Virus record (IMG/VR): IMGVR_UViG_3300010354_000047
Span: 1 to 64,000 of that record
Length of the DNA stretch: 64,000 bases
DNA from: a virus
Direction: 5' to 3' (one strand)
Both the position numbers and the translations under genes were made by a program. Shown here piece after piece: positions 3,982-34,154 of the stretch. The stretch's first letter is position 1; every line of letters starts with the position of its first letter. The notes beneath the pieces were generated by a model. That model was not told the DNA's origin. It did no database searches and saw only the letters and a list, made by a program, of their open reading frames with translations.

Positions 3982-4038
3982 CACGAGGGGGGCAATTGAC
4001 CCCCCAGTCAATCTCTTATATACTTACCGAAACCCCCA

Positions 4039-4370: not shown

Positions 4371-4395
4371 AAAGTTACTGAGTCCTGGCTTCGAG

Positions 4396-4863: not shown

Positions 4864-4873
4864 ATTAGCCAAC

Positions 4874-5212
4874 ATGTACCTCTCAATGACAGAACAGGAC
4901 TACGAAGAAGTTATCAAGGAAGCACGCATTGTTGTAGCCAAACGTCTTGGAATCTCAGTTGATCGAGAGCCGGTATGGTTTCTTCGCTCTGCAATTCGAT
5001 GCAGGGACTCTCTTGCAGCGGACTTGCTTGACAAGTTCATCGAGGTCTATACTGATTGGTGGAAAGCTTCCTGCTCGACTACTCAAGGAGAATCGGACTC
5101 GAAAGAAACTATAAAGAGGATTAAGTTGTTGATTGACAGGAGGGGCCTGATGCGTACCGCCTTAATGAGCTACTTGAATTCACTGTATCCCTCTCCTAGA
5201 CATGAACTCTGA
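4874..5212 (+). CDS. Hypothetical protein
   Basis: ORF in operon orientation. Confidence 0.5.
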   Translation: MYLSMTEQDYEEVIKEARIVVAKRLGISVDREPVWFLRSAIRCRDSLAADLLDKFIEVYTDWWKASCSTTQGESDSKETIKRIKLLIDRRGLMRTALMSYLNSLYPSPRHEL

Positions 5213-11935: not shown

Positions 11936-13015
11936 ATGGCAACATCTGTTTTACAACGACCAAAGGCAAATACCTGGGAGTCGTTCTGTCAGTGGGTAAC
12001 TTCCACTAACAACCGGTTGTACGTCGGTTGGTTCGGTACGCTCATGATTCCGTGCCTTCTTGCGGCAACAATCTGCTTCATTGTGGCTTTTATTGCAGCG
12101 CCGCCCGTCGATATTGACGGAATACGTGAACCAGTTGCTGGTTCTCTCATGTACGGCAACAACATCATCTCTGGTGCCGTAGTACCAAGTTCAAATGCGA
12201 TTGGATTGCATTTTTATCCAATCTGGGAAGCTGCTTCCCTTGATGAGTGGCTCTACAATGGAGGCCCTTATCAATTAGTTGTTTTTCACTTCCTTATTGG
12301 CGTCTTCTGCTACATGGGTCGTGAATGGGAACTTTCATACCGTCTAGGTATGCGCCCTTGGATCATGGTTGCTTACTCGGCTCCTGTAGCCGCTGCAACT
12401 GCTGTGTTCCTGATCTATCCTTTCGGTCAAGGGTCATTTTCTGACGGAATGCCCCTCGGGATCAGTGGGACCTTCAACTATATGATTGTTTTCACTGCTG
12501 AGCACAACATTCTGATGCACCCCTTCCACATGCTGGGTGTGGCCGGTGTCTTCGGTGGTTCTTTGTTCTCTGCCATGCATGGAAGCCTCGTAACCAGTTC
12601 ACTGGTGCGTGAAACCACTGAGAATGAAAGCCAGAACTACGGTTACAAGTTCGGTCAAGAGGAAGAAACGTACAATATTGTTGCTGCTCATGGGTATTTC
12701 GGAAGACTAATCTTCCAGTACGCCAGCTTCAACAACTCCCGTTCGCTTCACTTCTTCCTTGCAGCTTGGCCTGTGGTTGGAATCTGGTTTGCTGCTCTTG
12801 GAGTTAGCTCCATGGCATTCAACCTGAATGGGTTTAATTTCAACTCCAGCATCATGGATTCGCAAGGTAGGGTGATACCTACCTGGGCAGACATCCTAAA
12901 TCGCGCTAATTTGGGAATCGAAGTTGTCCACGAAAGAAATGCCCATAATTTCCCACTGGACCTCGCTGCTACCACGTCAACCCAAGTTGCTTTAACTGCT
13001 CCTGTGGTTGGCTGA
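11936..13015 (+). CDS. psbA: Photosystem II reaction centre protein D1
   Basis: Full-length D1: [49 protein letters not shown]; Mn-cluster ligands intact. Confidence 0.99.
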
Positions 13016-18305: not shown

Positions 18306-19297
18306 ATGCCCAGACTCATTCCGCTCTCCTCAAAAGCAAAAAACCGTCTCTTAAACACAATGGACGGAAACCCTGTAGTTCGAATCGAACAGCGAGTTGG
18401 ATCAAAAGTTTTCGCGGTGTCCGAAAACGGAAAATACTGCACTTGGGTGAACTTAACAGCTGACCCAAACTGGGACATCACACTTGACTGAACCCTTATT
18501 ATCAGTGAAAATGACACAAAAAGCTATTCCGATCAAAGAGTTCATTCAACAAGCGGCAGAGTCTGCTTTCCATGAATACATGAGCGGAAGCGACTCGTTT
18601 CTCCGAGGCTACGAGTGGCCGGCGATCATCTACGGGGTTTCCTTGGATGAGCTGGTAAAACGAGTCAGAAACGAGATGGAAGCGCTTCTCGAGGACCATC
18701 GGAAGAAGGTCATAGAAGGGGGCGGTTAACCCTACCTGCGAGGCCGGTTTACCCCCTTTGCCTCGACTCCGAAACCAGCTATAGTGATAATATGGAAAGT
18801 TTCACCTGGTTCTGAGTTTTGAACCCCTTTTTCCCAATCGCCCAAGCCTTGGGCCTTCAAATTTTCGCGGGCGAAGAGCTGGTGCACGATGGAAACATCT
18901 ACACTGAAGTTCGCGGCACGGGTCTTTGGCTCGTCCAGTCCCCCTACCCGATGGGCGACTACCCGAACGCGGAGCGATACTACGTCAGCGATTCCGAAGG
19001 AACCCAAGTGAGCGCCACCCATTGGAATGCTGGTGACGCGGTTCATGACCTTCTTCGCCTCGACCCGGAACTTCTGTCTGCCCAAGCCTCTTCCCCTTTC
19101 ACTTCCTTATGAGCGCGATTACCGTTTTCAACGTCTTCTACAACTGCGGAGTTCTCGGAGCCACCGACGTTTTCGTTGGCGCCTACCCCTCTGAAACCGA
19201 GGCTGAAAAAGCCTGCGACGAGTGGGGCTGCGAAAATGACTGGGATCCGTACTTTTCCATCGTTTCCGCAACTTCACCCGGAGAATTCCTGGGCTGA
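18306..19297 (+). other. Small hypothetical genes (18306-18491, 18484-18729, 18819-19112, 19109-19297) with a degenerate promoter copy at 18742-18785
   Basis: Packed ORFs; TTTGCC-N17-TATAGT. Confidence 0.55.
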
Positions 19298-19324
19298 TTT
19301 TTACCTCTTTCTTTGGTGGCTGAC

Positions 19325-19864
19325 ATGAAAACCAGAACCGTCACGGAATACCTTCGAAATCGCCACCTTAATCTCAACCTTCACAAACCCATGGTGGATG
19401 AAGTTGAGAGGACAGCAACTTTCTATATGTGGACTTTCTCAGGGCAGCTGGGAGGTTACCATCAACATCGCCCAGATGCCCCTAAGAGACCTCAAAAGCT
19501 TGGTCCAAAGCTTGCTCGGTATTTTACTTACCGGAAGCTTCCCGTCCTGACTGTATGGGGACTGGAAACTTTTCATCTCTTCGACGGCCCTTTATTTGTT
19601 TGCGAAGGAGTCTTTGACGCCGCTCGACTGACAAATCGAGGTAGAGCAGCCGTTGCTGTCTGCTGCAACGATCCACCAAAAGACTTTCGAAACTGGCTCA
19701 CAATGCTGAGCCGACCAACAGTCGCTGTCTGCGACGACGACGCTGCAGGGAGAAAATTGGCGAAGTTCACAGACTTTTCTGAAACAGCTCCAGACGGTAA
19801 AGACCTCGGAGACGCTTCAGAAGAGTACGTAAACTTCCTTCTCGAACGCTATCCCTCTAACTAA
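19325..19864 (+). CDS. Stand-alone TOPRIM (primase-like) protein
   Basis: LFVCEGVFDA, VCDDDAAG, KDLGD; no Zn-binding or helicase domain. Confidence 0.8.
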   Translation: MKTRTVTEYLRNRHLNLNLHKPMVDEVERTATFYMWTFSGQLGGYHQHRPDAPKRPQKLGPKLARYFTYRKLPVLTVWGLETFHLFDGPLFVCEGVFDAARLTNRGRAAVAVCCNDPPKDFRNWLTMLSRPTVAVCDDDAAGRKLAKFTDFSETAPDGKDLGDASEEYVNFLLERYPSN

Positions 19865-19879
19865 CTAACCAACCAACGA

Positions 19880-20395
19880 ATGGCAACTCAAACAACGCAA
19901 CCTCAGGCAAAGTGGAAGTCCGGTCAGATGCTCCTCTCCGCAATTCGCCGAGAAAAAGGCGGTGCTTCAGGGGAGAATTTCAGGGACATTGCCTTTGACC
20001 TCCGAACCTTGGGGAAAGATCTGGTTCGCGAAGTGACCAACGGCCGAGCGGCAGACAAGTCCTCAGACGGAAGGTACGTGGACATTGTATCTGAAACGGG
20101 GGAAAAGTACCGAGTCATTACTCGAGTCCTCAGGGAGAGGGGGGACTATCTTTTTGCTCTAGTGAGTACTGAGGAAACCAACCCCATTAACTATGTGAAA
20201 GAGTCGGAAAAGCCTGACGCGTTCGTATTTGTCGTCGTTCATCCTCAGGCTGGAGAGATCGACATTTTCAACTTCCCTCTGGAAAAGCGGGATGAAAAGA
20301 AGATTCCCAATAAAACGTACAATGTTTACTGGTCTTCTCGAAAGCGAGACTACGGTAAAGTGAAGAAAAATCTCTGGTTCACCGTTAAAGAGTGA
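19880..20395 (+). CDS. Hypothetical protein, possibly degenerate PD-(D/E)xK fold
   Basis: LG..LV...YVDIVSETGEKYRVITR...PDAFVFVV pattern; weak. Confidence 0.45.
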   Translation: MATQTTQPQAKWKSGQMLLSAIRREKGGASGENFRDIAFDLRTLGKDLVREVTNGRAADKSSDGRYVDIVSETGEKYRVITRVLRERGDYLFALVSTEETNPINYVKESEKPDAFVFVVVHPQAGEIDIFNFPLEKRDEKKIPNKTYNVYWSSRKRDYGKVKKNLWFTVKE

Positions 20396-20401
20396 GCTTA
20401 A

Positions 20402-20426
20402 AGGGCACCCCCTTTTGGGGTGCTCT
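20402..20426 (+). terminator. GC-rich hairpin between 19880 and the oxygenase
   Basis: agggcacccc-ctttt-ggggtgctct. Confidence 0.55.
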
Positions 20427-20504
20427 ACATTTTGGTTCAAAGTTTACCAGGGACTCTCGGTGCTATGCTCCCCCACGGTAGACTACCACCCTAGGAGGCA
20501 AAAC

Positions 20505-21914
20505 ATGAGAGAAATCCACCTAAAAGACTTAATACCCTTTGATCAAAAGAGGATGGGAAGCGTCCCGTCCGAAAGCGACTATCACGAGCTTATCAATGAA
20601 GATTGCAACGTTTATCTTCCCGATGGCTCCCTAGCAGTTGCTTTTCGAAAGAACGCTTTGAAAACTGCTCAATCCATCCATCCGGGCTCAAAGGAATACG
20701 ATTACTGGCGCTGGGCCTGCCGTTCCCTTCTCTCCGACCAACGAGGGAACGCGGCTGGCTCAGAGATAACAACCAATGTAGAAATTCGCCTAACTGAAGG
20801 ACAAAAAGAGTTTTTCTCAAAAGCTGTCAAGGGGCAGGTTTCAACCTTGACCGACGCTCTCGAAATTGTAGCGAACGACACAAGAGTTTCAAGGTCAACA
20901 TACTACGTAGGAAAAGCTGAAGCAGATGGATTGGTAGATCTAGAAGAGGTTGAAAAGTGGGACTCTTTAGTCCGCCGCAAATCAACGCCATTTGATCTCC
21001 GCCAAGAAGCCATCTCAAAGAGGAATCAGGCAAAATTAGCCTGGTTTGAAAAGTGGCTGCGAGAAGTTTGGGACAAGGCAGAAAATCGAAAAGAAGCCGC
21101 AATCACGGCTAAAAAGCGCTACGTCACCAACCAACCGCGAGGGCAAAAGGTGTACTCCGCAGTTCTCGGAGTCATCACGAGATCCGGGAGAACTCCGTTC
21201 GCTCGCCTCACATCACCAACGATGGAAAAGTACGAGGAGTTTGAATCCTTCGCCCCTTTGTACAAAGAAGTTGACTCCTTAGTTAAAAGCCTGTTTCCAC
21301 GAGAGTGGGGTATTCTCAAAGATCGATACCATGGAGTGAAGGACGAGCGTTACTCACTATTTGGAACCGTTTTCTCGTCGATCACTTGCAACTGGAACTT
21401 TCCAACCTGCTGGCACCGAGACGGACAAAACGCGAAAGATGCCGTTGCCGCTCTCGTTTGCTTTGACCGAGGGGGATATGACGGTGTTGACTTTGTGATG
21501 GCCGAGCTCGGGCTCGCGTTTCACATGCGCCACGGTGATGTCTTGATCGGAGACAACCAAGGAATCACGCACGGGCAAACCCCCTTTGTCCCGAAAACCG
21601 ACGACGCAGAGAACCTGGTTCTCGTCTTCTACTCTCGCGACGCAATCACCACACTTGACTCGCTGGAGTGTGAAACTTGCAGGCGAGAATTCATGGACTA
21701 CCTTGTTCACAATCACCCCGAACTCGGAAACGGTGAAGCGAAGTGGAACGGAAGTGTCCCAGGAGTCTGGAACTCGAAATACTGGAACGACTACAAAGCC
21801 CTTCGATCAAAGGAAGGAATTTACGACTACACCGTTTGTTCTAACACCAATCTGTCCGGAAAACTGGACACCGGCGAAGTCGAGATTCGTCAGCCCCATC
21901 TACTTAAGAAGTGA
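20505..21914 (+). CDS. TET/JBP-like Fe(II) oxygenase
   Basis: RGNAAG, GTVFSSITCNWNF, HRD, GDVLIGD...HGQT, LVFYSR; AGGAGG RBS before ATG 20505. Confidence 0.85.
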   Translation: MREIHLKDLIPFDQKRMGSVPSESDYHELINEDCNVYLPDGSLAVAFRKNALKTAQSIHPGSKEYDYWRWACRSLLSDQRGNAAGSEITTNVEIRLTEGQKEFFSKAVKGQVSTLTDALEIVANDTRVSRSTYYVGKAEADGLVDLEEVEKWDSLVRRKSTPFDLRQEAISKRNQAKLAWFEKWLREVWDKAENRKEAAITAKKRYVTNQPRGQKVYSAVLGVITRSGRTPFARLTSPTMEKYEEFESFAPLYKEVDSLVKSLFPREWGILKDRYHGVKDERYSLFGTVFSSITCNWNFPTCWHRDGQNAKDAVAALVCFDRGGYDGVDFVMAELGLAFHMRHGDVLIGDNQGITHGQTPFVPKTDDAENLVLVFYSRDAITTLDSLECETCRREFMDYLVHNHPELGNGEAKWNGSVPGVWNSKYWNDYKALRSKEGIYDYTVCSNTNLSGKLDTGEVEIRQPHLLKK

Positions 21915-22777
21915 ATAGCTGTTTACCGCAAATGACAAAACAATCGTTCAAGGTCGTAGTCCCAACCTATGGCAGATCGGATGCAATCGGAAAGTACACA
22001 ATGAGTTATCTCCGAAAGACCGACGTGGATCTTTCCGAAGTCTACCTCTTTGTAGCAAGTGAAGAAGAGAAGGAAAAATACAAGGCTTCCAACCCGGATG
22101 TGAAAATTGTAGTCGGAGTGAAAGGTCTTCCTCAGCAAAGGAAGTTCATTTCTGAATACTTTGAGCCGGGAACTCGCATACTTTCCCTTGACGACGACGT
22201 TTCAGGTCTCCAAAGGCTGGTCCTTCTCGATAAACTGGAAGGCCCTCAGAAGCCCCTTGACCACCCTTGCAAACTCGAAACGGTGACCAACCTCGTAGAG
22301 TTTGTCGAGAAAGGCTGGAAGCTGGCTGAAGGTAGAGGAATTGAACTCTGGGGGGCTTACCAAGTCGCTAACAAAGGTTTTCTGCATCCAAAGGTGAAGA
22401 CAGGAGCCCTGTTTATCATGGGGCACTTCTTCTCCTTTCTCGCGGGAGACCCCGTCTTTAACGAGATCACGCAATACCCTTGCAAGGATGACGTTTTCTG
22501 GTCTGTGTGGCACCATGTGAACCGAAAAGGAACTCTTCGCTTTGACAATTACTGCGTAAAGTCAAAAGCCCACTCTGGCTCGGGCGGGACAAACGAAGAC
22601 ATGGAGCGAAAGTTGCAGATCAACAACGAAACTTGTGAGGCGATTTGCTCGAAATATCCTGAGATTGCGTCGATCAAAATGCGAAAGACGAAAGATCCCT
22701 GGCTAAGCAGGTACAAGGAAATTCGGCTCAAACCGATCACTTACGAGACTCTCGTTGTAACCGACGACTGTTACTGA
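21911..22777 (+). CDS. TET-associated (GREB1-like/TAGT) GT-A glycosyltransferase
   Basis: VPTYGRS, LDDDV, WG.Y..AN..F, KDD, LRFD, GSGG. Confidence 0.8.
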   Translation: MNSCLPQMTKQSFKVVVPTYGRSDAIGKYTMSYLRKTDVDLSEVYLFVASEEEKEKYKASNPDVKIVVGVKGLPQQRKFISEYFEPGTRILSLDDDVSGLQRLVLLDKLEGPQKPLDHPCKLETVTNLVEFVEKGWKLAEGRGIELWGAYQVANKGFLHPKVKTGALFIMGHFFSFLAGDPVFNEITQYPCKDDVFWSVWHHVNRKGTLRFDNYCVKSKAHSGSGGTNEDMERKLQINNETCEAICSKYPEIASIKMRKTKDPWLSRYKEIRLKPITYETLVVTDDCY

Positions 22778-22783
22778 TCGAAG

Positions 22784-22826
22784 GGGCGGATTTCCGCCCT
22801 TTACTTATCTTTGGGCGCGCTATGTC
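22784..22826 (+). promoter_or_regulatory. Palindrome-linked promoter variant
   Basis: GGGCGGA-t-TTCCGCCC then TTTACT; -10 element less canonical. Confidence 0.6.
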
Positions 22827-22847
22827 TTGTTCACACCACTTTCAACC

Positions 22848-23198
22848 ATGATTCCAGACCCAAAGAAAACAATTGTATTCGACGTTGATGATACCATTCT
22901 CACAACGGTCAATCGGGATTACGAAAACTCCCAACCACGGGGGGAGGTTATCCAAGGTATGAAGACCCTGAAAGAAAGAGGGTGGACGATCATCCTCCAT
23001 ACGGCTCGTGGAATGGGTCGATCAAATGGGGACATCGAGAGTGTGAGGGAAGAAGTTATCGATGAAATCGAAAAGTTTTGCGATAAATACGATGTGCCAT
23101 TCGACGAGATCCAGATCGGAAAGCCGTGGGCAGCCCTTTACGTCGACGATAAAGCACTCACTCCCGAACAGTTTTCAAAAGTAGTAGAGGCACTGTGA
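22848..23198 (+). CDS. HAD phosphatase (capsule-biosynthesis EcbF/BcbF-like)
   Basis: FDVDDTI, HTARGM, GKPW...YVDDKA. Confidence 0.85.
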   Translation: MIPDPKKTIVFDVDDTILTTVNRDYENSQPRGEVIQGMKTLKERGWTIILHTARGMGRSNGDIESVREEVIDEIEKFCDKYDVPFDEIQIGKPWAALYVDDKALTPEQFSKVVEAL

Positions 23199-23911
23199 AA
23201 AACGCTCTCATTTTGGCTGCTGGCCGCAGCTCAAGGTTCGGCCGAAACAAACTTGAGGAAAAGTTTGATGGGGAGACTCTCCCCTTTATCGCTGCAAAGT
23301 TTGCTCTTGAGAACGGCGCGAAAAACATCTACTTGACCCTGTCTCGCTCAGCGATCAAAACGGATGGAAAACGTGTATACCATCCCGTTCTCGAAGAGGT
23401 TTCCAGAATTTGTGACCCTGTTGTTCGCTTTCAGAGCGAGGAAACATACGGCCCTGGTGCCGCAATCACAACCTGGGCCGGAATTCTCGAAGAACCCTTC
23501 ACTGTTTTGTTCGGGGACAATCTTTACCTTGGGGAAATGCCAGATTGGATGACCCGAAATCTCTCTAGCTCTGACCAGCAAGACGTAATTTTTACAACTC
23601 GTCGAAGCCTTGTTAACCCTCGAAACTTGCAGTTGGCTGCCGTGGTTAACAACTACGTGATTGAAAAACCTCACGGGAGGCTTGAGGGGAATTTCTTCTG
23701 TGGTTTCGCTCGATTCCCACAGGGTTATCTGTCAAGGGTGGGAGACCTACGAAAGAGCGATCGAGGGGAAGTTGAGATCACTGACATGATCAACATGTCG
23801 GAGAACTGTCAATCTTGGGATATACAAAGGGACCTGGGTGTCATCTGGGCAGATCTCACTTACGAAGCCGATTGCGCAAGAATTCGGGAGCTTCTGTATG
23901 AAGGGAAGTAG
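23195..23911 (+). CDS. Sugar-phosphate nucleotidyltransferase (RmlA-like)
   Basis: ILAAGRSSRF, FGDN, EKP, SDRGEVEITD. Confidence 0.85.
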   Translation: MKNALILAAGRSSRFGRNKLEEKFDGETLPFIAAKFALENGAKNIYLTLSRSAIKTDGKRVYHPVLEEVSRICDPVVRFQSEETYGPGAAITTWAGILEEPFTVLFGDNLYLGEMPDWMTRNLSSSDQQDVIFTTRRSLVNPRNLQLAAVVNNYVIEKPHGRLEGNFFCGFARFPQGYLSRVGDLRKSDRGEVEITDMINMSENCQSWDIQRDLGVIWADLTYEADCARIRELLYEGK

Positions 23912-24644
23912 TGGCGCAACGCTCGATTTCTCTGGGGATTACATTCGGAAAAGCTGCAAGGACGCCATCGAACAGTGCGAGTGGTTTGATATTGCTGCGA
24001 AACTCCCCCTTGTGAACGGCATTCGTATCCCGCAAACCATTCTTGAAACGGGCTCAGACTATCAAATCGAGTTTGTAGAAGGAGTATCGGGAACGAAAGT
24101 GGATTCCACTCGTATTCTGGATAGTCTTGTAGATCAAGTTTTCTTGTGGTCAAAAGTCCCTTCGGTTCGGAAAGCGACTTGGAAGTCTTATATCCAGCGA
24201 CTGTACGACGAACATGTCTCCCTATGCGACAGTCAAATAGTTCGACGAGTTTTCGAAAAACTCGATGAAATTGATGGCTGTCCTTCGAGTTTCTCTCACG
24301 GAGATCTGACTCTCGAAAACGTCCTGGTCGAAAACAATGGTGGAATCGTGCTGATAGACCCCAATTTCAAAATGAATCTCTTTCAGTCCTATATCCTGGA
24401 CTTAGGAAAACTTCTTCAGTCCGTTCACAGTGACTACCACCGCCTCTTTGACTCCCATCCTGGGGGCGACCCTTCGGCTCTGTGCGCCCACCTGCGGCAG
24501 AGGCTGGGGCAAGGGCTATGGCGCCAGGCTCTGGTCGCTGAGATGTCGCACGTGGTCCGCTTGCGCAAGTATCGCCCCGCCTCCCAACACCCCATTGTGG
24601 ACGGGCTCTTGGAGAGGCTCCTGCAGGAATACCTTTACAGTTGA
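23898..24644 (+). CDS. APH/choline-kinase-like phosphotransferase
   Basis: HGDLTLENVL, LIDPN, DLGKLLQS. Confidence 0.8.
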   Translation: MKGSSGATLDFSGDYIRKSCKDAIEQCEWFDIAAKLPLVNGIRIPQTILETGSDYQIEFVEGVSGTKVDSTRILDSLVDQVFLWSKVPSVRKATWKSYIQRLYDEHVSLCDSQIVRRVFEKLDEIDGCPSSFSHGDLTLENVLVENNGGIVLIDPNFKMNLFQSYILDLGKLLQSVHSDYHRLFDSHPGGDPSALCAHLRQRLGQGLWRQALVAEMSHVVRLRKYRPASQHPIVDGLLERLLQEYLYS

Positions 24645-24674
24645 CCCAGGAGGCTATACTGATTATGAAAACTT

Positions 24675-25205
24675 TTGTACCCCATGAGCCCTTCACCCTC
24701 AAGAGTTGAGAAATTAGAAAAAGAGATAGCGCGACTACAGGAACAACTTAGAGCCGAAAAGCGAAAAAGCGAGTCCTTGTGGAATGACCTCTATGAGCAC
24801 TTCCTAAAAGAAGGAAATTCTGAGGAAAACTCAGGCTGGTGGGCTGACCAAATATCTCAGATTTTCTCTCGATGGGTGGTTAATCAAAGGACAAAACTGA
24901 GTGAAAGAATTTCCGAGTCGGGGGAACTGACGATGCCCCCTTATACGGATTGTTTGAACGATTTAGCCATGAGCCTTTCGCCCCCGGGATCCGAGCCACC
25001 GGAGTGGATCCCTTCTCTATCAGACTTTGAGGTAACTCGACAACACTCTTCAAAGCTGCCGATGGTTGTTCCAATGGATGAAGCTGAAGCCTTGAAACCT
25101 CGAAAGAGGACCATCAATGTTCCGAAACCAATTCCGGGGGCAGTTCCGCTCCCCCTTCCCCCTTTAACGGAGGAGGAGAAGGCAAGAGACAGAGCTGGAC
25201 GGTAA
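24675..25205 (+). CDS. Hypothetical protein
   Basis: Coiled-coil N-terminus; TTTACA...TATACT promoter-like element upstream. Confidence 0.55.
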   Translation: MYPMSPSPSRVEKLEKEIARLQEQLRAEKRKSESLWNDLYEHFLKEGNSEENSGWWADQISQIFSRWVVNQRTKLSERISESGELTMPPYTDCLNDLAMSLSPPGSEPPEWIPSLSDFEVTRQHSSKLPMVVPMDEAEALKPRKRTINVPKPIPGAVPLPLPPLTEEEKARDRAGR

Positions 25206-25241
25206 TCCGCCCTTTACGGGCTCTCCGCGCCCAGTTATACT
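25197..25241 (+). promoter_or_regulatory. Palindrome-linked sigma70-type promoter
   Basis: GGACGG-taat-CCGCCC, TTTACG-N17-TATACT. Confidence 0.75.
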
Positions 25242-25261
25242 TGGGTTAATTGGGAAAAGAC

Positions 25262-25897
25262 ATGAACATCAGGTTTATAGGAGACGTCCACAGAAAGTGG
25301 GATAAATACAAGAAGCTAATCAAAGGCTATGAACGCTCTCTACAAGTCGGGGACTTTGGTATTGGGTTCATCAACCCTCACACTGAGAAACCGTACAGCA
25401 ACCCTCCCTATGACCACATGTCTAAGGGGGAACACTTCTTCATTCGAGGAAACCATGACAATCCTGGCCAATGCTCTCGTCACCCGTATTGGGTGAAAGA
25501 TGGCGGCTCTGTGTTTGGCCGCGACGACATTTTCTGCGTTGGCGGTGCCGTCTCGATCGACAAACACCGTCGAACCGAAGGCTACGACTGGTGGCACAAT
25601 GAAGAGCTTTCTTACACAGAGCTCTGCAAAGTCATGGACATCTACGAGCTCGTCAAGCCGAAGATCGTCGTGAGCCACGAATGTCCCGATAGTGTTATTT
25701 CTCGTGTGTTACACGAACAGGGGATGTTTAAATACGACATCCCCTCAACCACTCGCAAGTGCTTTGACAATATGCTCGAGATTCACAAACCTGACTTGTG
25801 GATTCATGGCCACTGGCACTTCGACCACCACACTGTTCATAATGGCGTGGAGTTTATTGGCCTCGGCGAGCTTTCTCACCTCGACCTTGAAGTGTAG
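25262..25897 (+). CDS. Calcineurin-like metallophosphoesterase
   Basis: GDVH, GDFG, RGNHD, SHECP, HGHWH. Confidence 0.9.
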   Translation: MNIRFIGDVHRKWDKYKKLIKGYERSLQVGDFGIGFINPHTEKPYSNPPYDHMSKGEHFFIRGNHDNPGQCSRHPYWVKDGGSVFGRDDIFCVGGAVSIDKHRRTEGYDWWHNEELSYTELCKVMDIYELVKPKIVVSHECPDSVISRVLHEQGMFKYDIPSTTRKCFDNMLEIHKPDLWIHGHWHFDHHTVHNGVEFIGLGELSHLDLEV

Positions 25898-25926
25898 AGG
25901 GGTATACCCTGAGGTCTCAAATACAA

Positions 25927-26184
25927 ATGAGCACATCTTTTCTCATCTGGCTGACTATCGTCGGCTTTCTCTCTTACGTCCTTTACCGTGACCCGAATGT
26001 AACCGCTTACATCCTTCTTCAAAATCAAAACTTTTCAGCGAAACTTGGCCGTCTCAAGTACTTCATTACGAATAACCCCAATTTCTTCTGGGTTCGATGG
26101 AGAATTAGTAGAAACACAGACCGAGCCGCCCGCAATCTCGGTCGAGATCTCGGTGTCGACAAAAACAAAGACTGGCACGATTGA
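25927..26184 (+). CDS. Small membrane-anchored hypothetical protein
   Basis: N-terminal hydrophobic helix. Confidence 0.6.
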   Translation: MSTSFLIWLTIVGFLSYVLYRDPNVTAYILLQNQNFSAKLGRLKYFITNNPNFFWVRWRISRNTDRAARNLGRDLGVDKNKDWHD

Positions 26185-26205
26185 CTAACAAAAACAATTC
26201 TAACA

Positions 26206-26775
26206 ATGACAACAGTTATCAATCTATTCGGTGGCCCAGGTTGCGGGAAAAGCACAACCGCCGCGCTTCTCTTCGCCCAGATGAAACTCCAGGGATACCA
26301 TGTTGAGCTGGTTCGCGAGTATGTCAAGTATTGGGCTTGGAACGACCGTAAAGTTCGAGAGTGGGATCAACTTTACCTCCTTGGAAAGCAAAGTTCCTAC
26401 GAAAGTATGCTTTATGGAAAAGTCGACTACATCGTGACCGACAGCCCCATTCTTCTAGCCGGTATATTTCAGGAATATCGTTCAAACGGGGCGGATAAGT
26501 ATGTGAGTAAAGCGGCACAGAGTTTCATGGCCCATGCTGAGGCAACAGGGGTAACGTATAAGAACTTTTTGCTTCGGCGAAACAAACCTTACGACCCGCG
26601 AGGTCGCTGGGAAGATGAAAAGGAAGCCAGAAACCTCGACGATTACATCGAAGAGTATCTGACTCTGTACAGTGGTTTCCCTCCTCTTGAAATCTCGGGG
26701 CCAAATAACAAAAGAGATCTGGAGATAATGCAATCTTTAGGGGAAATGAAGGTTCGAGATGTTCCGTCGTACTGA
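26206..26775 (+). CDS. NadR/AAA_28-like P-loop kinase
   Basis: GGPGCGKST, VREYVK, VTDSP, GRW. Confidence 0.85.
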   Translation: MTTVINLFGGPGCGKSTTAALLFAQMKLQGYHVELVREYVKYWAWNDRKVREWDQLYLLGKQSSYESMLYGKVDYIVTDSPILLAGIFQEYRSNGADKYVSKAAQSFMAHAEATGVTYKNFLLRRNKPYDPRGRWEDEKEARNLDDYIEEYLTLYSGFPPLEISGPNNKRDLEIMQSLGEMKVRDVPSY

Positions 26776-26820
26776 GGGCGGTTTCCCGCCCTTTACCTAT
26801 CGTCTTCGGTGAGTTATGCT
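26776..26820 (+). promoter_or_regulatory. Palindrome-linked sigma70-type promoter
   Basis: GGGCGG-tttc-CCGCCC, TTTACC-N17-TATGCT. Confidence 0.75.
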
Positions 26821-26840
26821 TAACTCGTTGCTCCCTCTGA

Positions 26841-27110
26841 ATGACCGTCAACCCCGACTGGACCGCCCCCCCTGGTTACCTTGTTGAAGAGTGTCGCCGA
26901 GAGCGAAACATTTCACTTCACGACTTCGCCGGAGAGACCGGCCTTACAGTACCCGAAGTTCTTGAACTTGAAAGAGGAGAGAGGGGGATTGACCTCCTTC
27001 TGGCCGAAAGATTGGAATATGTCTTTGGAGTGCCTGAAAGCTTCTGGCTGACCCTTCAAAAGAACTTCGAAGTTGACATCAAAAAAGGACGTGCTTTTAC
27101 AAATGATTGA
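26841..27110 (+). CDS. HigA-like XRE HTH protein
   Basis: PPG.L.E...ER..S...FA...G......LE.VFG....FWL.LQ. Confidence 0.8.
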   Translation: MTVNPDWTAPPGYLVEECRRERNISLHDFAGETGLTVPEVLELERGERGIDLLLAERLEYVFGVPESFWLTLQKNFEVDIKKGRAFTND

Positions 27111-27366
27111 GCTTTATGTTTCCGAAAATAAAAGTTTTGACCCTGTGCGGTTTTACCGTAATCGGGTTAGGGTCTTTCTGAATCGAGACTACACATATGG
27201 CCTCTGGATTGACGAAGACCGGCTCTTTGACCTTCTAACCGAGGGTCAGATGAGGCAATATATTTTAGATCGGTCCCCTAAGGGAGCATATTTCTCCGTT
27301 ACTCGAGAAGTTGCGCAAGAAATTCTAAAAAGAGGGCACACCCCTTACGCAAAACAAAACCTGTGA
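27103..27366 (+). CDS. Hypothetical protein
   Basis: Coupled ORF. Confidence 0.55.
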   Translation: MIELYVSENKSFDPVRFYRNRVRVFLNRDYTYGLWIDEDRLFDLLTEGQMRQYILDRSPKGAYFSVTREVAQEILKRGHTPYAKQNL

Positions 27367-27369
27367 CAA

Positions 27370-29394
27370 ATGGAAACACCTACCAACCTCGTCACGCAGC
27401 TGAAGGAAGACTACCTCAGCTACTCCATGGCTGTTCTAGTCGGAAGGAGCATTCCCGATCTGTACGACGGGTTGAAACCTGCTCAGAGAAGAATTCTTCA
27501 AACGATGTTTGAGGAGGGATTTCTTCCAAACAAGCCCTACGTGAAGTGTGCCCGTACAACCGGTCTCACAAGCGCATTCTACCATCCCCATGGGACCTGT
27601 TACGGTTCCTTGATTAACATGGCTACGCCATGGAACAACAATGTTCCCTGGATAGATTGCCATGGAAACATCGGAAGTTCTGTAGATAATCCGGCAGCTG
27701 AGAGGTACGTTGAAAACAGACTCCGGATTTCGGCCATCGACCTTCTTATGAAGGATCGAGAAGTCTGGGAAACTCGGTCCAACTACGACGGAAGCCGCCA
27801 GGAAGCAGTTCGCTTTAATAGTGCTATTCCAACTGTTCTGTTGAACGGGGACTCCGGAATCGCTGTAGGTTTTGCTACTCGTTTGGCCCCACACGGACTT
27901 CGCTCGATTGTGGAGTCTGTGAAACTTTTGTGTAAAGACTCTCCCGATAGTAAAAAGTATTCGGATAATCTAACAAAAGCTCGGGAAATCCTCCTGCCAG
28001 ATTTTCCAACAGGAACCCAGATCATTCGCGATGAGCAACTTAATCTTTACTCTCAGACTGGTAGCGGGAACATTCGCTGTCGGGCAATTGTTGCTGAGGG
28101 TGTACAAAAACGGAGCGGTAAAGCAAAAGATAGATCCACTCTGGCCTTTACTCATCTCCCTCCCGGAGCTAACCCTGAAAAGCTGGGTGAGCAAATTCGA
28201 AACGAAGTAGAGAAGGAAAGGATCACAGGAGTAGCAGAAGTTAACGATCTCTCAGACCAAACAGGGGATTGCCTCGAGATTGTCGCAAAACCCGGAACAA
28301 ACATTGAGGATCTAAAGAAACAGCTCTACGCATACACAGACCTTGAGTTGAGATACTCGGCTAAGACACTTGTAATCGATGGCGTCCGACCGGTTGAACT
28401 CTCCCCGGTTCAAATCATTGAGAGGTGGATTCGTTGGCGCCTCTCTCGTCTTCAGAGCAAGTTTCTCCACGAGCTTTCCCTTCGAAATTCTCGCCTTCAT
28501 ATTGTAGAAGGTTTGCTAAAGGCCATCAACAAGATGGACGAGATTATCAAGAAAATTCGCTCATCCGAGAGCAAGAAGGAAGCGAAGGAAAACCTGATGG
28601 GCAAACCGTTCTTGTTTTCCAGCGAACAAGCGGAAGCCATTCTCGAAATGCGCCTCCGTCAACTCACAAACCTTGACCAAAGCGAACTCTCTGAAGAAGC
28701 TGAAAAACTCCGAAGTAGGGTCGAAGAGCTGGAAAAACTTTCCCAGGATAACAAGGAGGGGGAACAAGCCCGAAAGTCCTACCTTGTGACTGAGGTGACA
28801 GAGCTAGGCAAACGCCACGGAGAGGCCCGCAGGAGCCCCCTGGTGGAGCCCCCCGCAAGCGAGGCCAACCTGGCCCCAGGTGAGCGAAAGAGAGCCCCTG
28901 CAGCTCCGACAAAGCCCCGGTTTCTGAAGGTGGACCTTAAGAAAGGTGTGGTGGAACAAGCGAAAGGCCCTCGTGGAGCGTTGGTAGTTGAAGCAAAGGA
29001 GAAAATTATCCTTATGACTTCAGATGGAACTCTAAAGAAAGTTGCTGCCAACTTTAAGGGGACAATTTCCACGAGCTACTCCCCTGTCACTCTTGCTAAA
29101 AAAGAGTCAGATGTTTCCTCTCGAAAGTATCTCGCAGTCTTCTCCCTCGACGGGCAAATGAAAGCAGTCACCATTTCAGGTGAAGACCTTTGCCGAGCAA
29201 CGAGTAAAGGTAAAAGGTGGATACCCGAGGGAGCGACTCTGATCCATTTCGGTGAAAACAGTTACACAGTAGAATGGGTGTCCAAGCGAAAGAAACCTTT
29301 GAAACTGGACCTCTCCGTAAAACCTGGAAAACCCGGAGCGAAAGGAATCAAGATTGCAAATCTATCTGACGTCACTCTGACATTGGCCGGGTAA
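27370..29394 (+). CDS. gyrA: Type IIA topoisomerase subunit A (GyrA/ParC-like)
   Basis: DGLKPAQRRIL, YHPHG, AAERY (catalytic Tyr), GIAVGFAT, PDFPTG, QAEAILEMRL; short degenerate C-terminal domain. Confidence 0.9.
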   Translation: METPTNLVTQLKEDYLSYSMAVLVGRSIPDLYDGLKPAQRRILQTMFEEGFLPNKPYVKCARTTGLTSAFYHPHGTCYGSLINMATPWNNNVPWIDCHGNIGSSVDNPAAERYVENRLRISAIDLLMKDREVWETRSNYDGSRQEAVRFNSAIPTVLLNGDSGIAVGFATRLAPHGLRSIVESVKLLCKDSPDSKKYSDNLTKAREILLPDFPTGTQIIRDEQLNLYSQTGSGNIRCRAIVAEGVQKRSGKAKDRSTLAFTHLPPGANPEKLGEQIRNEVEKERITGVAEVNDLSDQTGDCLEIVAKPGTNIEDLKKQLYAYTDLELRYSAKTLVIDGVRPVELSPVQIIERWIRWRLSRLQSKFLHELSLRNSRLHIVEGLLKAINKMDEIIKKIRSSESKKEAKENLMGKPFLFSSEQAEAILEMRLRQLTNLDQSELSEEAEKLRSRVEELEKLSQDNKEGEQARKSYLVTEVTELGKRHGEARRSPLVEPPASEANLAPGERKRAPAAPTKPRFLKVDLKKGVVEQAKGPRGALVVEAKEKIILMTSDGTLKKVAANFKGTISTSYSPVTLAKKESDVSSRKYLAVFSLDGQMKAVTISGEDLCRATSKGKRWIPEGATLIHFGENSYTVEWVSKRKKPLKLDLSVKPGKPGAKGIKIANLSDVTLTLAG

Positions 29395-31223: not shown

Positions 31224-34154
31224 ATGCGAACCAACGAACTCGGATATCCTGTCCTTTCTGAAGACCTCCATAAAAGGGTGTTCGGCCGAGAGAAAATGTC
31301 CTCTATGAGTGCTCCTCAGCTTAACAAGGCTAAGAAGCTTCTCGGAAAGTTTGGTATTCCAGTACCTGTAGATCACCCTGAGAACCTGTATGATGGCCCC
31401 CTGCCACTGCCGGATCTTAAGGGTGATTCTTTGCAAGAACACTTTGAAAAGATCGCCGAGGAGCAAATCGGCAGGTATAAGGACCTTGCAGATTCCTTTG
31501 CTCGGTGTGATCTCCCGAAGATCCCTGGAAACGGCGACTTTATCTATCAACCGGGCTGGACCAGGTACGAGTGGGTAGACGACCACTTTGAAACTGGAAA
31601 AGTTCCTTATCCTCTCGAAGAAGCATTCACATACGACACAGAAACTTTCGTGGAAGGCGGAGCTTTCCCGATTATCGGAACTGCCCTGAGTGAGAAAGCT
31701 GCATACGTGTGGCTTGCTTCTGAGCTTATTGACCCGACGATTCCTCAGGAGGATTGGGACCAAGGTGAGCTGATTCCGATCGGGGAGGGGAGGTTCGTTG
31801 CTGGTCATAACATCAGCTACGACCGAGTGAGAGCTCAAGAAGGGTATTCCCTGGAAAGAAACAAACCCGAAAACTTTTACTTCGACACCCTTTCAGCGCA
31901 CATCGGAGTTTCAGGTCTGGCCGCCGGTCAGCGATGGCTTTACGTTCTGGCAGCGAAAGACCCTGAGGAACTGTCCGAAGAGGAGAAGAGAAAACTTCGA
32001 TACGCCCCGAAGTGGCTTGATGAAGGCGCTACAAACAGCCTTCTCCAGTGTTACAATTTTCACGTGTACGAAGTCAGGAAGTACTTCGGGGACGACAAGG
32101 TTCGACCCCTTGACCAAGGAGACAAGAAAGTTCGAGATATCTTTGTAGACGCTACTCACATCTCACAAATTACGGCGGTTCTGGAAAGCGCAGTAGATTA
32201 CGCCATGAAGGACGCATTCTACACTGCGGAACTCTTTCAAGCCCTCTGGTTTAAGTATCTGGATAGCACACCTTCGATGGTCGGCCTCTGCGGTCACTAC
32301 CACTTGAACGGAAGCGTAGTTCCTCTTGTGGATAACTGGGAGGAGTGGATCAAAGAGGCAGAAAGGGTTTATCACGGTATGAACGACGAGATGACAGAAC
32401 TCTGCCGGAAACTCGTCTGGCAGACTTATGAATCCTGGAAAGAAGTCTTGGAGAGTTGTGAAGACAAAGAGGAGGGGCTGGAGAAGGCTAACCTTTGGTC
32501 TCTAAAGGACCCCTGGACTAGTCAACTTAACTGGAACGTTAAGTCTCGAAAAGGTGTCTATGCCTGGATTCCTGAATGGATGCGTCCATTTATTCGCGAT
32601 CCGAATCGTCACATCGGAGTTCGCTCCGAATTGGCGCATTTGCTCCTGAAGTTGAAGTACGAAGGGTCTCCGATTATTCTCACTTCCGATAAAGGTTGGT
32701 GCTATCATGATGAGACTGGTGAGCTGGTGAAAATCCCTCACCCGAAGGGGAATGGCGCAAATGTTGGAGGAGTTTTGTCGAAAGACTTTGTTCAAGACAT
32801 GGAAGTCGGTCGCCTCAGCAGCGACCTCCCTGAAGCCAAAAGAGCTCTTGACATCGCCAATGCAACAAGTTACTGGACCTCAGTGCGAAGCAGGGTAATG
32901 AGTCGCATTTTCTTGAAGGTCAACAACCCGCAAGGAAGCGACGCTTTCGTAACTCTCCCCGAGATTCTTTGCCACGGGACCGTCACTCGTCGAACTGTAG
33001 AAAGTCTGATGGCAACTATGTGCTCTACAAAGTCTTGGCGAGTCGGCACCGAGCTCAAGACGAGAATCCAGGCCCCGGAAGGCTGGAAGATCGTTAGCGC
33101 GGACTACGACGGTCAAGAACTTCAGATTGCTTCGATCTACAGTGACCGGTGGGAAGGCGGTTTTGTTGGCTGTTCCCCGATGGGTTACAACGTTCTCTCC
33201 GGAGCAAAGGAGAACGGTACGGACCCGCACACAAGCCTCGCTCGGGCTATTCTCCCGGAGCTGTACAAGGGTCTTGTATGGGATAAAAAGCTCGGTGTTT
33301 GCTACTCCTCTACGGAGCGACCCCTCTCTGAAGAAGGCTGGGTCTTGTCAGCTGGAACATGGCTCAACCCTGTAGATAAGGACAGGGATAATCTCTTAAA
33401 GAAGGCTCGTGACCTTAGTAAGATTGTGGGTTTCGCAACCCTTTATGGGGGAAGCGTCCGAGCATTAAGCACACCGATTCGTCGAACTTTTCCTGAAAAG
33501 AACGCAAAAGAAGTCAAAGACTTCGCCTTAAGAGTTCTTTCTACAAAGAAAGGGGTTTTGAGCAACGGAATCTATGTCGATGGTTCTGACTCCGGGGCGT
33601 TCAACCTGATGGAAGAGATCTCGATGCGAACTAAAGTTCCCCAACTCCCTTGTCTTGGAACGAAGATCTCAACGGCGATGCGTCCGGCGGCAGTCGGTAC
33701 AGACTTCAAAACCGGGAGGACGAACTGGACGATTCAGGCCTCTGGGGCTGAAATCCTTTCAATCACCCTCACAGCTGTGGCCTGGTTGGCCCAGGAGTAC
33801 AAGATCCCTTACAGATTCATCATTAGCATCCATGACGAACTACACTTTATGACCCCTGAGAAGTATGCAGAGCAGTTCTCCGTCCTTTTTCAGATTGCCC
33901 ATCTTTACACTTGGGCTCGTTTTCAGAGTGCTGTAAGGATTCCGGAGTTGCCCCTGAGCCGAGCCTTCTTCTCCTCCGTTGCGATTGATGACCGCCTTCG
34001 CAAGTCCCCCAAGGAATGCACGGTAACTCCTTCAAACCCACAAGGTAAAACCGAACCAAACGGGGTAGAACACTCCATGCAAGATCTCAGCGAGATCGGT
34101 GCAATTGACCGTCTAAAAATTCGTTACAACGCTATTCAAAACAATCTGATTTAA
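31224..34154 (+). CDS. Family A DNA polymerase, mitochondrial Pol-gamma-like
   Basis: Exo DTET, GHNISYDR, DTLSAH; GTVTRR...RVGTELK...QAP; motif A ADYDGQEL; motif B R...K...F...YG; motif C ISIHDE; AFFSSVAID. Confidence 0.93.
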   Translation: MRTNELGYPVLSEDLHKRVFGREKMSSMSAPQLNKAKKLLGKFGIPVPVDHPENLYDGPLPLPDLKGDSLQEHFEKIAEEQIGRYKDLADSFARCDLPKIPGNGDFIYQPGWTRYEWVDDHFETGKVPYPLEEAFTYDTETFVEGGAFPIIGTALSEKAAYVWLASELIDPTIPQEDWDQGELIPIGEGRFVAGHNISYDRVRAQEGYSLERNKPENFYFDTLSAHIGVSGLAAGQRWLYVLAAKDPEELSEEEKRKLRYAPKWLDEGATNSLLQCYNFHVYEVRKYFGDDKVRPLDQGDKKVRDIFVDATHISQITAVLESAVDYAMKDAFYTAELFQALWFKYLDSTPSMVGLCGHYHLNGSVVPLVDNWEEWIKEAERVYHGMNDEMTELCRKLVWQTYESWKEVLESCEDKEEGLEKANLWSLKDPWTSQLNWNVKSRKGVYAWIPEWMRPFIRDPNRHIGVRSELAHLLLKLKYEGSPIILTSDKGWCYHDETGELVKIPHPKGNGANVGGVLSKDFVQDMEVGRLSSDLPEAKRALDIANATSYWTSVRSRVMSRIFLKVNNPQGSDAFVTLPEILCHGTVTRRTVESLMATMCSTKSWRVGTELKTRIQAPEGWKIVSADYDGQELQIASIYSDRWEGGFVGCSPMGYNVLSGAKENGTDPHTSLARAILPELYKGLVWDKKLGVCYSSTERPLSEEGWVLSAGTWLNPVDKDRDNLLKKARDLSKIVGFATLYGGSVRALSTPIRRTFPEKNAKEVKDFALRVLSTKKGVLSNGIYVDGSDSGAFNLMEEISMRTKVPQLPCLGTKISTAMRPAAVGTDFKTGRTNWTIQASGAEILSITLTAVAWLAQEYKIPYRFIISIHDELHFMTPEKYAEQFSVLFQIAHLYTWARFQSAVRIPELPLSRAFFSSVAIDDRLRKSPKECTVTPSNPQGKTEPNGVEHSMQDLSEIGAIDRLKIRYNAIQNNLI

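Follow-up and report, generated by a model that had tools for sequence, protein, structure and literature searches.

A predicted TET/JBP oxygenase, DNA glycosyltransferase and sugar-activation module in a cyanophage-like virus: a candidate route to glycosylated 5-hydroxymethyluracil

Which base does a virus alter, and with which sugar, when a DNA oxygenase, a DNA glycosyltransferase and three enzymes that may build a sugar donor are encoded side by side? The question is raised by five tightly packed genes, all on the + strand, at positions 20505-24644 of the first 64,000 nucleotides (nt) of the 136,373-bp IMG/VR virus record IMGVR_UViG_3300010354_000047; this 64-kb stretch is hereafter called the window. 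In order, the genes specify a TET/JBP dioxygenase, a TET-associated glycosyltransferase (TAGT), a HAD phosphatase, a nucleotidyltransferase and an APH-like kinase, the last three being referred to below as the trio (Table 1). The cluster is probably a cyanomyovirus module for the post-replicative hypermodification of thymine to glycosyl-5-hydroxymethyluracil (glycosyl-5hmU), as judged from the families of its enzymes, their neighbourhoods in other viruses and their likeness to published pathways.

In the pathway that we propose, the dioxygenase would hydroxylate thymine in the phage's DNA at its 5-methyl group, with Fe(II), 2-oxoglutarate and O2, yielding 5hmU. The APH-like kinase would phosphorylate the anomeric position of a host sugar phosphate, and the HAD phosphatase would remove the distal phosphate from the resulting sugar bisphosphate, leaving a sugar-1-phosphate that the RmlA-like nucleotidyltransferase would join to a nucleoside triphosphate to form a nucleoside diphosphate (NDP)-sugar. 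The TAGT, a GT-A enzyme of the family of the kinetoplastid base-J glucosyltransferase, would then move the sugar onto the hydroxymethyl group, and the base-J-like glycosyl-5hmU so formed would probably shield the DNA from host nucleases. The first step is assigned from family and genomic context, and the donor steps are predicted by homology with two published phage routes. A narrower proposal, which we regard as possible but short of probable, is that the product is an undescribed base of a cyanophage lineage that includes Synechococcus phage S-CBWM1, in which 5hmU carries a non-glucose sugar, i.e. a pentose or heptose derived from Calvin-cycle or pentose-phosphate sugar phosphates and activated by the phage without an isomerase. 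If this were true, it would be the first virus-made base J analogue with a dedicated donor pathway.

The cluster and its conservation

A sequence-only reading of the window had proposed this five-gene cluster and its families; the open reading frames (ORFs) indeed lie at these positions on the + strand with Pfam support, the APH match falling just below its cut-off. The overlaps that it had described between the genes are likewise present: 4 nt between the oxygenase and glycosyltransferase genes (21911-21914), 4 nt between the HAD and nucleotidyltransferase genes (23195-23198) and, given a kinase start at ATG 23898, 14 nt between the nucleotidyltransferase and kinase genes (23898-23911). This kinase start is the most likely one and gives a protein of 248 amino acids (aa), as is typical of relatives. 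The oxygenase start is an ATG behind AGGAGG, 3′ of the first hairpin of Table 1; the HAD start is most likely ATG 22848, in an ORF that is open from TTG 22827, and the TAGT gene has an alternative ATG 7 codons inside. The gap of 70 nt between the glycosyltransferase and HAD genes contains a hairpin that may mark the limit of a transcript or act as an attenuator. Terminator-like hairpins are over-represented in the surrounding region (23 in window positions 19000-27500, against 9.8 +/- 2.8 in shuffles), and the two strongest of them bracket the oxygenase-glycosyltransferase pair.

Table 1. Features discussed in the text, with positions in the window
Feature	Position	Strand	Basis or description
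Terminator-like hairpin	20402..20426	+	10-pair stem, 7 GC pairs, then T-rich tail; parts upstream gene 19880-20395 from the cluster
Predicted TET/JBP Fe(II)/2-oxoglutarate 5-methylpyrimidine dioxygenase, 469 aa	20505..21914	+	Pfam Tet_JBP, phrog_24024
Predicted TAGT (TET-associated, GT-A type) DNA glycosyltransferase, 288 aa	21911..22777	+	Pfam TAGT, motifs
Hairpin between glycosyltransferase and HAD genes	22781..22802	+	9 pairs, 6 GC, T-rich tail
Predicted HAD-IIIA phosphatase, ~116 aa	22848..23198	+	TIGR01689, phrog_1238, Pfam Hydrolase
Predicted sugar-1-phosphate nucleotidyltransferase, RmlA/GlmU/MurU class, 238 aa	23195..23911	+	NTP_transf_3, PDB profile
Predicted APH/choline-kinase-like small-molecule kinase, 248 aa	23898..24644	+	APH below cut-off, motifs
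psbA	11936-13015		Photo_RC 2.9e-90
Family-A DNA polymerase, exonuclease domain of mitochondrial polymerase-gamma type	31224-34154		PF18136, 5.9e-58

The oxygenase matches Pfam Tet_JBP (PF12851) with 59 bits against a cut-off of 34.9 (4.5e-16; residues 264-408 of the 499-aa ORF) and phrog_24024 at 1.9e-44, and its iron-binding triad HxD...H (H304, D306 and H356) is invariant among 33 aligned family members. The catalytic domain is C-terminal and follows a conserved domain of about 230 aa of unassigned family, for which relaxed Pfam searches (E up to 5) gave nothing credible and the ESM Atlas nothing at all. Searches of the PDB with the single oxygenase sequence and with its profile returned insignificant matches only, those of the profile to CMD1 and TET2 having E-values of 0.27-1.4. 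The glycosyltransferase matches Pfam TAGT, a family said to have been defined by Iyer et al. in 2013 in NAR, with 50.4 bits against a cut-off of 27.5 (3.6e-13), and bears the motifs GR22, DDD93-95 and KDDVF around an invariant D194. Phage GT-A DNA glycosyltransferases have been described as having R...DDD...EDY/F motifs and as resembling T. cruzi JGT (Pyle 2023, bioRxiv 10.1101/2023.12.21.572611). Judged by sequence, the GR, DDD and KDDVF of the window enzyme correspond to these motifs, the last of them being KDD(V)F, not EDY/F.

The cultured Synechococcus phage S-CBWM1 (host Synechococcus sp. CBW1002), whose circular genome of 139,069 bp is complete, has the five genes in the same order as gp8-gp12, with products 35, 57, 41, 48 and 46% identical to the window proteins. 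Three IMG/VR contigs found via the oxygenase carry the same block at 57-83% identity and a fourth ends inside the oxygenase; the genes that flank the block differ. Across S-CBWM1 and IMG/VR contigs, the conservation of the block was put at 35-72% identity. The arrangement is not due to chance, since S-CBWM1 and several independent IMG/VR contigs have these five genes in the same order. In megablast, the cluster had no match in the phage collection. The S-CBWM1 record labels gp8 'putative SNF2 DNA repair protein', gp10 'capsule biosynthesis phosphatase' and gp11 'glucose-1-phosphate thymidylyltransferase', and annotates gp9 and gp12 as hypothetical. As encoded at 3729-5165 of MG450654, gp8 is a TET/JBP oxygenase without an SNF2 domain, and its relatives in Stenotrophomonas phage DLP6 and Caulobacter phage Cr30 are labelled alike; the SNF2 label looks like a carry-over from kinetoplastid JBP2 annotation.

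The base that is probably modified

No C5-methyltransferase had been seen in the window by the sequence-only reading, which named thymine as perhaps the substrate if none existed elsewhere. A six-frame search with PF00145 found none in the 136,373-bp record, the window included. The same search was negative in all eight records that combine TET, TAGT and the trio, including the complete S-CBWM1 and a 98%-complete 277-kb record, in three isolate genomes that have the oxygenase only (phages DLP6, Cr30 and C48C1) and in one ParB-TET contig; the sole match among 13 records, which serves as a positive control, came from a record of the thymidylate-synthase-like type without TET. Pfam was also run on 158 ORFs, namely 78 from the + strand of the window and 80 from the rest of the record, out of 174 called greedily, and recognized no methyltransferase of any family among them.

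The neighbourhoods of related oxygenases point to thymidine as well. Scanning viral contigs with the oxygenase alignment gave 245 relatives, from which 78 distinct loci with long-form relatives were kept, and partner genes were sought with local profile HMMs in six-frame ORFs within 8 kb (E<=1e-5). An amino-acid:DNA transferase (AADT) was present in 44 of the 78 loci, P-loop kinase-3 in 34 and TAGT in 15; a C5-methyltransferase was present in none, by a local HMM built from two sequences only. AADT was combined with P-loop kinase-3 and GATase in 25 loci, with GATase in 10, with kinase-3 and inositol-1-phosphate synthase in 7 and with inositol synthase in one, and a single locus had TAGT, AADT, kinase-3 and inositol synthase together. 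TAGT stood with the trio in 12 loci and by itself, at contig ends, in 2; GATase was the only partner in 6 and kinase-3 in one. When 11 loci were sampled with Pfam (91 of their 119 listed ORFs were covered), ADDT (PF18724) was found in 7, Ploopntkinase3 (PF18751) in 5 and DNA_methylase in 0. AADTs and P-loop DNA kinases reportedly act on 5hmU in DNA, a finding credited to Lee et al. in 2018. Both are described as known machinery of thymidine hypermodification (O'Toole 2026, PNAS, PMC13229309), and the ParB-dependent short type of TET has been shown experimentally to oxidise thymine (O'Toole 2026, PMC13229309). TETs of this type, too, are followed by the trio and a TAGT in two loci (L030 and L031, described below).

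In a quick IQ-TREE maximum-likelihood tree of 69 oxygenases, from which ORFs of <380 aa and identical copies had been dropped, the window enzyme belongs to a five-row, entirely trio-linked clade (SH-aLRT 98) that is nested in a 12-row clade (96), which is completed by six AADT-linked oxygenases and one TAGT-linked oxygenase. The nearest oxygenase relatives outside glycosylation clusters therefore feed thymidine pathways. Local HMMs for AADT, kinase-3, GATase and inositol synthase found none of these genes in this genome, which leaves glycosylation as the one fate of the hydroxymethyl group that can be recognised. Based on the lack of a C5-methyltransferase, the linkage of the family mostly to thymidine-hypermodification enzymes and the nature of the sister clade, thymine is likely the substrate of the oxygenase and is favoured here, as the sequence-only reading had suspected.

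The closest oxygenase relatives outside trio clusters (L101:7794-11717, L105:2288-6360, L106:7959-11846 and L124:4-6523; 58-59% identity) are followed by AADT and a myo-inositol-1-phosphate-synthase-like gene, often with P-loop kinase-3, and L124 additionally has an oxidoreductase and a TAGT. In Cr30 (L012:5791-12264), an annotated inositol-1-phosphate synthase lies 4 kb after the oxygenase. The combination of AADT and inositol synthase suggests an inositol- or cyclitol-derived hypermodification of thymidine in these clusters.

The proposed sugar donor and the alternatives

The HAD protein has the catalytic motif DVDDT and matches Pfam 'Hydrolase' with 26.6 bits (cut-off 26.4), TIGR01689 'capsule biosynthesis phosphatase' at 2e-25, which is below that model's cut-off, and phrog_1238 at 2.4e-23. 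In tblastn it matched 389 phage records, mostly of T-even-like phages of enterobacteria and Acinetobacter, with HY126 and Shewanella phage Thanatos-1 among them; it is a putative sugar-bisphosphate phosphatase. The nucleotidyltransferase matches NTP_transf_3 with 30.1 bits (cut-off 27), and the 23 PDB sequences that its profile matched at E<=0.01 are all sugar-1-phosphate nucleotidyltransferases, the best being 2ggo/ST0452 (2.4e-12) and B. anthracis RmlA (3.4e-12). Its motifs LILAAGxSxRF, GPG, LFGDN, EKPH and EITD agree with the G-x-G-x-R, EKP and ExTD-type patterns of such enzymes. The kinase motifs GxSGA, K18, HGDLTLEN and IDPN show little or no variation across 35 relatives. Some relatives bear precomputed APH or Choline_kinase matches. 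The kinase family is nearly exclusive to viruses (117 database clusters at E<=2e-34); in the ESM Atlas the kinase falls solely among viral APH-like clusters, its neighbours being 63-100% viral. PDB searches with the single kinase sequence and with its profile gave insignificant matches only, the best profile match being choline kinase at E 0.027. The enzyme is predicted to be an anomeric sugar-phosphate kinase.

Two published phage routes provide models for these steps. In 'contig 53', a bifunctional HAD-like/APH-like enzyme, a cytidylyltransferase and a GT-B glycosyltransferase were all essential in E. coli for the formation of heptosyl- and diheptosyl-5-hydroxymethylcytosine (5hmC) (Pyle 2023 preprint, bioRxiv 10.1101/2023.12.21.572611). 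In the uridine diphosphate (UDP)-arabinofuranose route, an isomerase yields arabinose-5-P, AfhE, which is bifunctional, forms the 1,5-bisphosphate with its C-terminal kinase domain, the HAD phosphatase AfhF strips the 5-phosphate, and AfhE then produces the UDP-sugar with its N-terminal MurU/LicC-like domain (Lee 2026, NAR, PMC13326640). The window HAD is 34% identical over 113 aa (E 1e-14) to a 128-aa ORF of HY126, called hypothetical in the record, which adjoins a 562-aa ORF of bifunctional size; from their size and position, these ORFs are presumably AfhF and AfhE. The gene order in the window, nucleotidyltransferase followed by kinase, equals the domain order of AfhE.

The company kept by the kinase ties the trio to DNA glycosylation. 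A scan of viral DNA with the kinase alignment gave 154 relatives, with 80 loci kept, of which 21 have a full-length relative of at least 31% identity; one of these begins inside the nucleotidyltransferase gene and is unassessable, leaving 20, and some loci share contigs with earlier ones. The 59 distant or partial matches (L035-L093) were set aside as another family, and L036 and L050 among them have other gene contexts. The contiguous five-gene block is found in 7 of the 20 loci, S-CBWM1 included, and TAGT-HAD-nucleotidyltransferase-kinase in another 7, in which one or two TET paralogues lie 2-4 kb upstream with exonuclease-like and ATP-grasp genes between. The order is ParB-TET-HAD-nucleotidyltransferase-kinase-TAGT in 2 loci (L030 and L031), where the trio and TAGT stand directly behind short TETs of 281-293 aa, upstream of which are genes for a ParB_N protein, an amidoligase and a GATase. 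One locus, on an 8.3-kb contig without TET, has a T4 alpha-glucosyltransferase-like enzyme and then HAD-nucleotidyltransferase-kinase, beside psbA. The remaining 3 (L032-L034) combine a thymidylate-synthase-like gene, a dUTPase or dCMP deaminase, a HAD::kinase fusion, a PF01467 cytidylyltransferase-like gene that replaces the nucleotidyltransferase, and an alpha-glucosyltransferase-like enzyme; a C5-methyltransferase follows in two of them. The fusion was confirmed in L033, where residues 114-358 of a 362-aa protein match the kinase family (hhalign probability 99.9%), and the N-terminal half of the fusion in L032-L034 matches the window HAD with 42-48% identity.

A DNA glycosyltransferase gene, either TAGT or T4-alpha-glucosyltransferase-like, thus adjoins the trio in 20/20 assessable loci, a linkage that spans two unrelated glycosyltransferase folds and three routes to the hydroxymethyl base. 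The sequence-only reading had made its case depend on the trio's co-occurrence with the oxygenase, and a TET/JBP gene is present in 16/20. Based on the glycosyltransferase linkage, the fusion precedent and the homology to AfhF, we infer that the HAD, nucleotidyltransferase and kinase constitute an NDP-sugar donor pathway for the DNA glycosyltransferase.

Two gene neighbourhoods are of interest beside this pattern. In L021:67-4960 (the 277-kb, 98%-complete contig), L022-L026 and L028, TAGT-HAD-nucleotidyltransferase-kinase comes after two long-form TET/JBP paralogues, which are in tandem and 49% identical, and after genes for an Rv2179c-like exonuclease and an R2K ATP-grasp protein. Some relatives (L111) have a GATase where the trio would be. 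In Prochlorococcus phage P-SSM5 (L095, 94734-105060), a HAD homologue of 38% identity lies near genes annotated as heptose kinase/adenylyltransferase, ADP-heptose synthase, heptose epimerase and carbamoyltransferase; the 'ADP-heptose synthase' was compared with the kinase family and is unrelated.

Several observations weigh against the pathway as proposed. The APH match of the kinase, at 21.9 bits (1.7e-4), is just under the cut-off of 23.2. Alignment of the kinase profile to residues 219-434 of the 562-aa HY126 ORF is weak (hhalign 38%, E 3.4e-4), with the catalytic motifs in register, and that of the nucleotidyltransferase to the presumed AfhE is weak as well (hhalign probability 10%) and covers the N-terminal motif only. 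A sugar-phosphate isomerase (SIS, PF01380) was found in 0/9 cyanophage-type records (this genome, S-CBWM1 and 7 related ones), HY126 being positive. The starting material must therefore be a sugar phosphate already made by the host, and the entry substrate differs from that of the arabinose route or depends on the host; 'self-contained', as the sequence-only reading had called the cluster, is too strong. With respect to the oxygenase, 13 of the 78 loci have no partner gene at all, and some ParB-less clade C1 oxygenases had no activity on T or 5-methylcytosine (5mC) in E. coli (O'Toole 2026, PMC13229309). Finally, the genome is 61% complete by CheckV and genes could lie in the missing part, a point that is countered by the complete relative.

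The last point also bears on an oxygenase that would act on 5mC, like those of clades A and B, and lead to glycosyl-5hmC, with methylation by the host or by a methylase encoded in the missing 39%. Oxidation of 5mC that an adjacent C5-methyltransferase has produced is published for phage TETs of these two clades (Burke 2021, PMC8256090), and CMD1 and TET2 are among the PDB profile matches, though at the E-values given above. Nevertheless, PF00145 is missing from the complete S-CBWM1 and from the 98%-complete relative, the family loci have AADT nearby in 44/78 and a C5-methyltransferase in 0/78, and the 158 scanned ORFs contain no methyltransferase of any Pfam family; oxidation of 5mC is thus quite improbable here. 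A different donor is a somewhat better candidate, although still an unlikely one: the kinase and nucleotidyltransferase might act like LicA and LicC to make a cytidine diphosphate (CDP)-alcohol or NDP-polyol of the choline, ethanolamine, glycerol or inositol type, from which the 'glycosyltransferase' would transfer a phospho-alcohol or polyol. Kinase relatives with Choline_kinase matches, the JGI name 'thiamine kinase-like', the choline kinase match in the PDB (E 0.027), the assignment of the nucleotidyltransferase to NTP_transf_3, a family that includes LicC, and the inositol-1-phosphate synthase of sister clusters would all fit such a donor. However, the PDB matches of the nucleotidyltransferase profile are exclusively sugar-1-phosphate nucleotidyltransferases, with EKP and ExTD-type motifs in the window enzyme, so that, of the NDP-sugar or polyol offered by the sequence-only reading, the polyol is the less likely. 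Furthermore, the HAD is homologous to sugar-bisphosphate phosphatases and is integral to the module, sometimes fused to the kinase, the published HAD::APH case yielded heptose (Pyle 2023 preprint), and inositol synthase occurs in AADT-type clusters, not in those of the trio type.

Service of the trio to a glycan other than DNA, on a virion protein or the host envelope, would make its position next to the DNA-modification pair a mere adjacency. The best NCBIfam model of the HAD is indeed 'capsule biosynthesis phosphatase', a hairpin parts the glycosyltransferase gene from the HAD gene, and the HAD homologue of P-SSM5 is in a heptose-type cluster without an annotated DNA glycosyltransferase. Against this, a DNA glycosyltransferase gene is adjacent in every one of the 20 assessable close-kinase loci, regardless of its fold and of the way in which the base is made, and the scanned ORFs of this genome include no second glycosyltransferase, which leaves a non-DNA glycan very unlikely. 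Least probable of all, in our estimation, is a role of the APH-like kinase on DNA itself: like the P-loop 5hmU DNA kinases, it would phosphorylate 5hmU and so activate the base for substitution, and the nucleotidyltransferase and HAD would process this intermediate in place of a free sugar. In favour of such a role, DNA kinases and AADTs are the usual partners of the oxygenase family, and amidoligase and GATase genes accompany the trio in L030 and L031. The known DNA kinases, however, are P-loop enzymes (PF18751), of which this genome has none, as it has no AADT; the trio has direct precedents in free-sugar activation, and the nucleotidyltransferase bears the motifs of sugar-1-phosphate nucleotidyltransferases.

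Relation to known systems and genome setting

The proposed formation of glycosyl-5hmU from thymine with a phage-made NDP-sugar most closely recalls the base J pathway (JBP1/2 and JGT), with which it shares the two-step logic and the two families, i.e. a TET/JBP oxygenase and a GT-A DNA glycosyltransferase. Base J is made with the cell's UDP-glucose, whereas the phage brings its own three-enzyme donor pathway, and therefore its sugar may not be glucose; in addition, no J-binding or SNF2 domain was found. The phage thymine dioxygenases (5mYOX C1/C2) are likewise TET/JBP enzymes with no neighbouring C5-methyltransferase and with hypermodification genes, such as those of glycosyltransferases, around them, among which the legend of Fig. 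9 of that paper also includes APH and HAD domains (O'Toole 2026, PMC13229309). Relative to the ParB-linked thymine dioxygenases, the window enzyme is longer (about 470 aa, with the N-terminal domain of about 230 aa, versus 281-293 aa in L030 and L031), and no ParB_N match was found in the scanned ORFs of this genome.

As in the UDP-arabinofuranose route (API, AfhE and AfhF of HY126, RB69 and DLP3), an APH-like kinase, a HAD phosphatase and a MurU/RmlA-like nucleotidyltransferase would supply a DNA glycosyltransferase via a 1,n-bisphosphate (Lee 2026, PMC13326640). The HAD is a clear homologue, whereas the nucleotidyltransferase and kinase are separate genes here, only remotely similar to AfhE, and there is no arabinose-5-phosphate isomerase. 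The acceptor of that route also differs, being 5-hydroxycytosine made before replication by a ThyA homologue, and its glycosyltransferases are GT-B, not GT-A (Lee 2026, PMC13326640). Contig 53 has, as far as its published description allows comparison, the same architecture as L032-L034 (Pyle 2023); in the window, by contrast, HAD and kinase are separate, the nucleotidyltransferase is RmlA-like and not PF01467, the glycosyltransferase is GT-A, and the base is probably hmU and not hmC.

Each of the five enzyme types has a counterpart, either characterised or predicted, in recent work on phages. APH is among the domains reported to co-occur with 5mYOX and glycosyltransferase genes (Pyle 2023; O'Toole 2026, PMC13229309), and the share of such contigs that bear a methyltransferase is given as about 20-30% (Pyle 2023) or 6% (O'Toole 2026, PMC13229309). 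The sequence-only reading had assumed more novelty for the idea than it has (Pyle 2023 preprint; O'Toole 2026; Lee 2026). We did not find in print the particular assembly of a long-form oxygenase, a GT-A enzyme, split HAD, RmlA-like nucleotidyltransferase and APH genes and no isomerase, nor its presence in cyanophages including S-CBWM1, although supplements may list such contigs or S-CBWM1 itself; a measured glycosyl-hmU from a phage was not found in the literature searched.

Post-replicative oxidation of thymine in phages was experimentally shown only in 2026 (O'Toole 2026, PMC13229309), and the present cluster joins an oxygenase of probably this type to a JGT-like transferase and a complete predicted sugar-activation route. 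A single oxygenase lineage serves glycosylation in some clusters and amino-acid transfer in others, and the same kinase-phosphatase pair is combined with various transferases and glycosyltransferase folds; taken together, these clusters show pathway assembly from modules. A hypermodified thymine would affect the restriction, CRISPR targeting and sequencing of these phages, and S-CBWM1, as a cultured carrier, makes a base-J-like nucleotide in viruses of abundant marine and estuarine phototrophs directly testable.

By gene content, the genome is that of a cyanophage-like myovirus. Its psbA and family-A polymerase genes mark it as a phage of the S-CBWM1 kind, not a classical T4-like cyanophage. 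Its portal gene is Mu-like, its tail-tube and baseplate genes are T4-like, and the remainder of the record encodes a large terminase, PhoH, ThyX, dCMP deaminase, MazG and ribonucleotide reductase; with ThyX and dCMP deaminase, the virus therefore makes deoxythymidine monophosphate (dTMP). The sequencing runs listed consist of one with a full share of the DNA, which probably represents the source sample, and three with small shares; none of them is an RNA run, and no long-read library is among them.

The ORFs on either side of the cluster (19880-20395 and 24675-25205) gave no credible Pfam match at relaxed E-values of up to 5, and BLASTP ruled out that they are ParB-like; they were not counted in the module because they are common to only one group of relatives. 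Several kinase-like genes of unassigned role are present elsewhere. Three ORFs outside the window (77796-79121, 120325-121068 and 121733-122509 of the record) have weak APH, ABC1 or protein-kinase matches. Within the window, an AAA_28 P-loop ORF (26206-26775) carries the PHROG label 'thymidylate kinase' and had no P-loop kinase-3 identity by local HMM; together with a cytidylyltransferase-like/NMN-adenylyltransferase-like ORF (8731-9366), it resembles a split NadR-type NAD salvage pair. Positions 2974-3510 encode a nucleoside 2-deoxyribosyltransferase-like protein (PF15891, 8.2e-31); proteins of this type can hydrolyse deoxynucleoside monophosphates and might shape the nucleotide pool.

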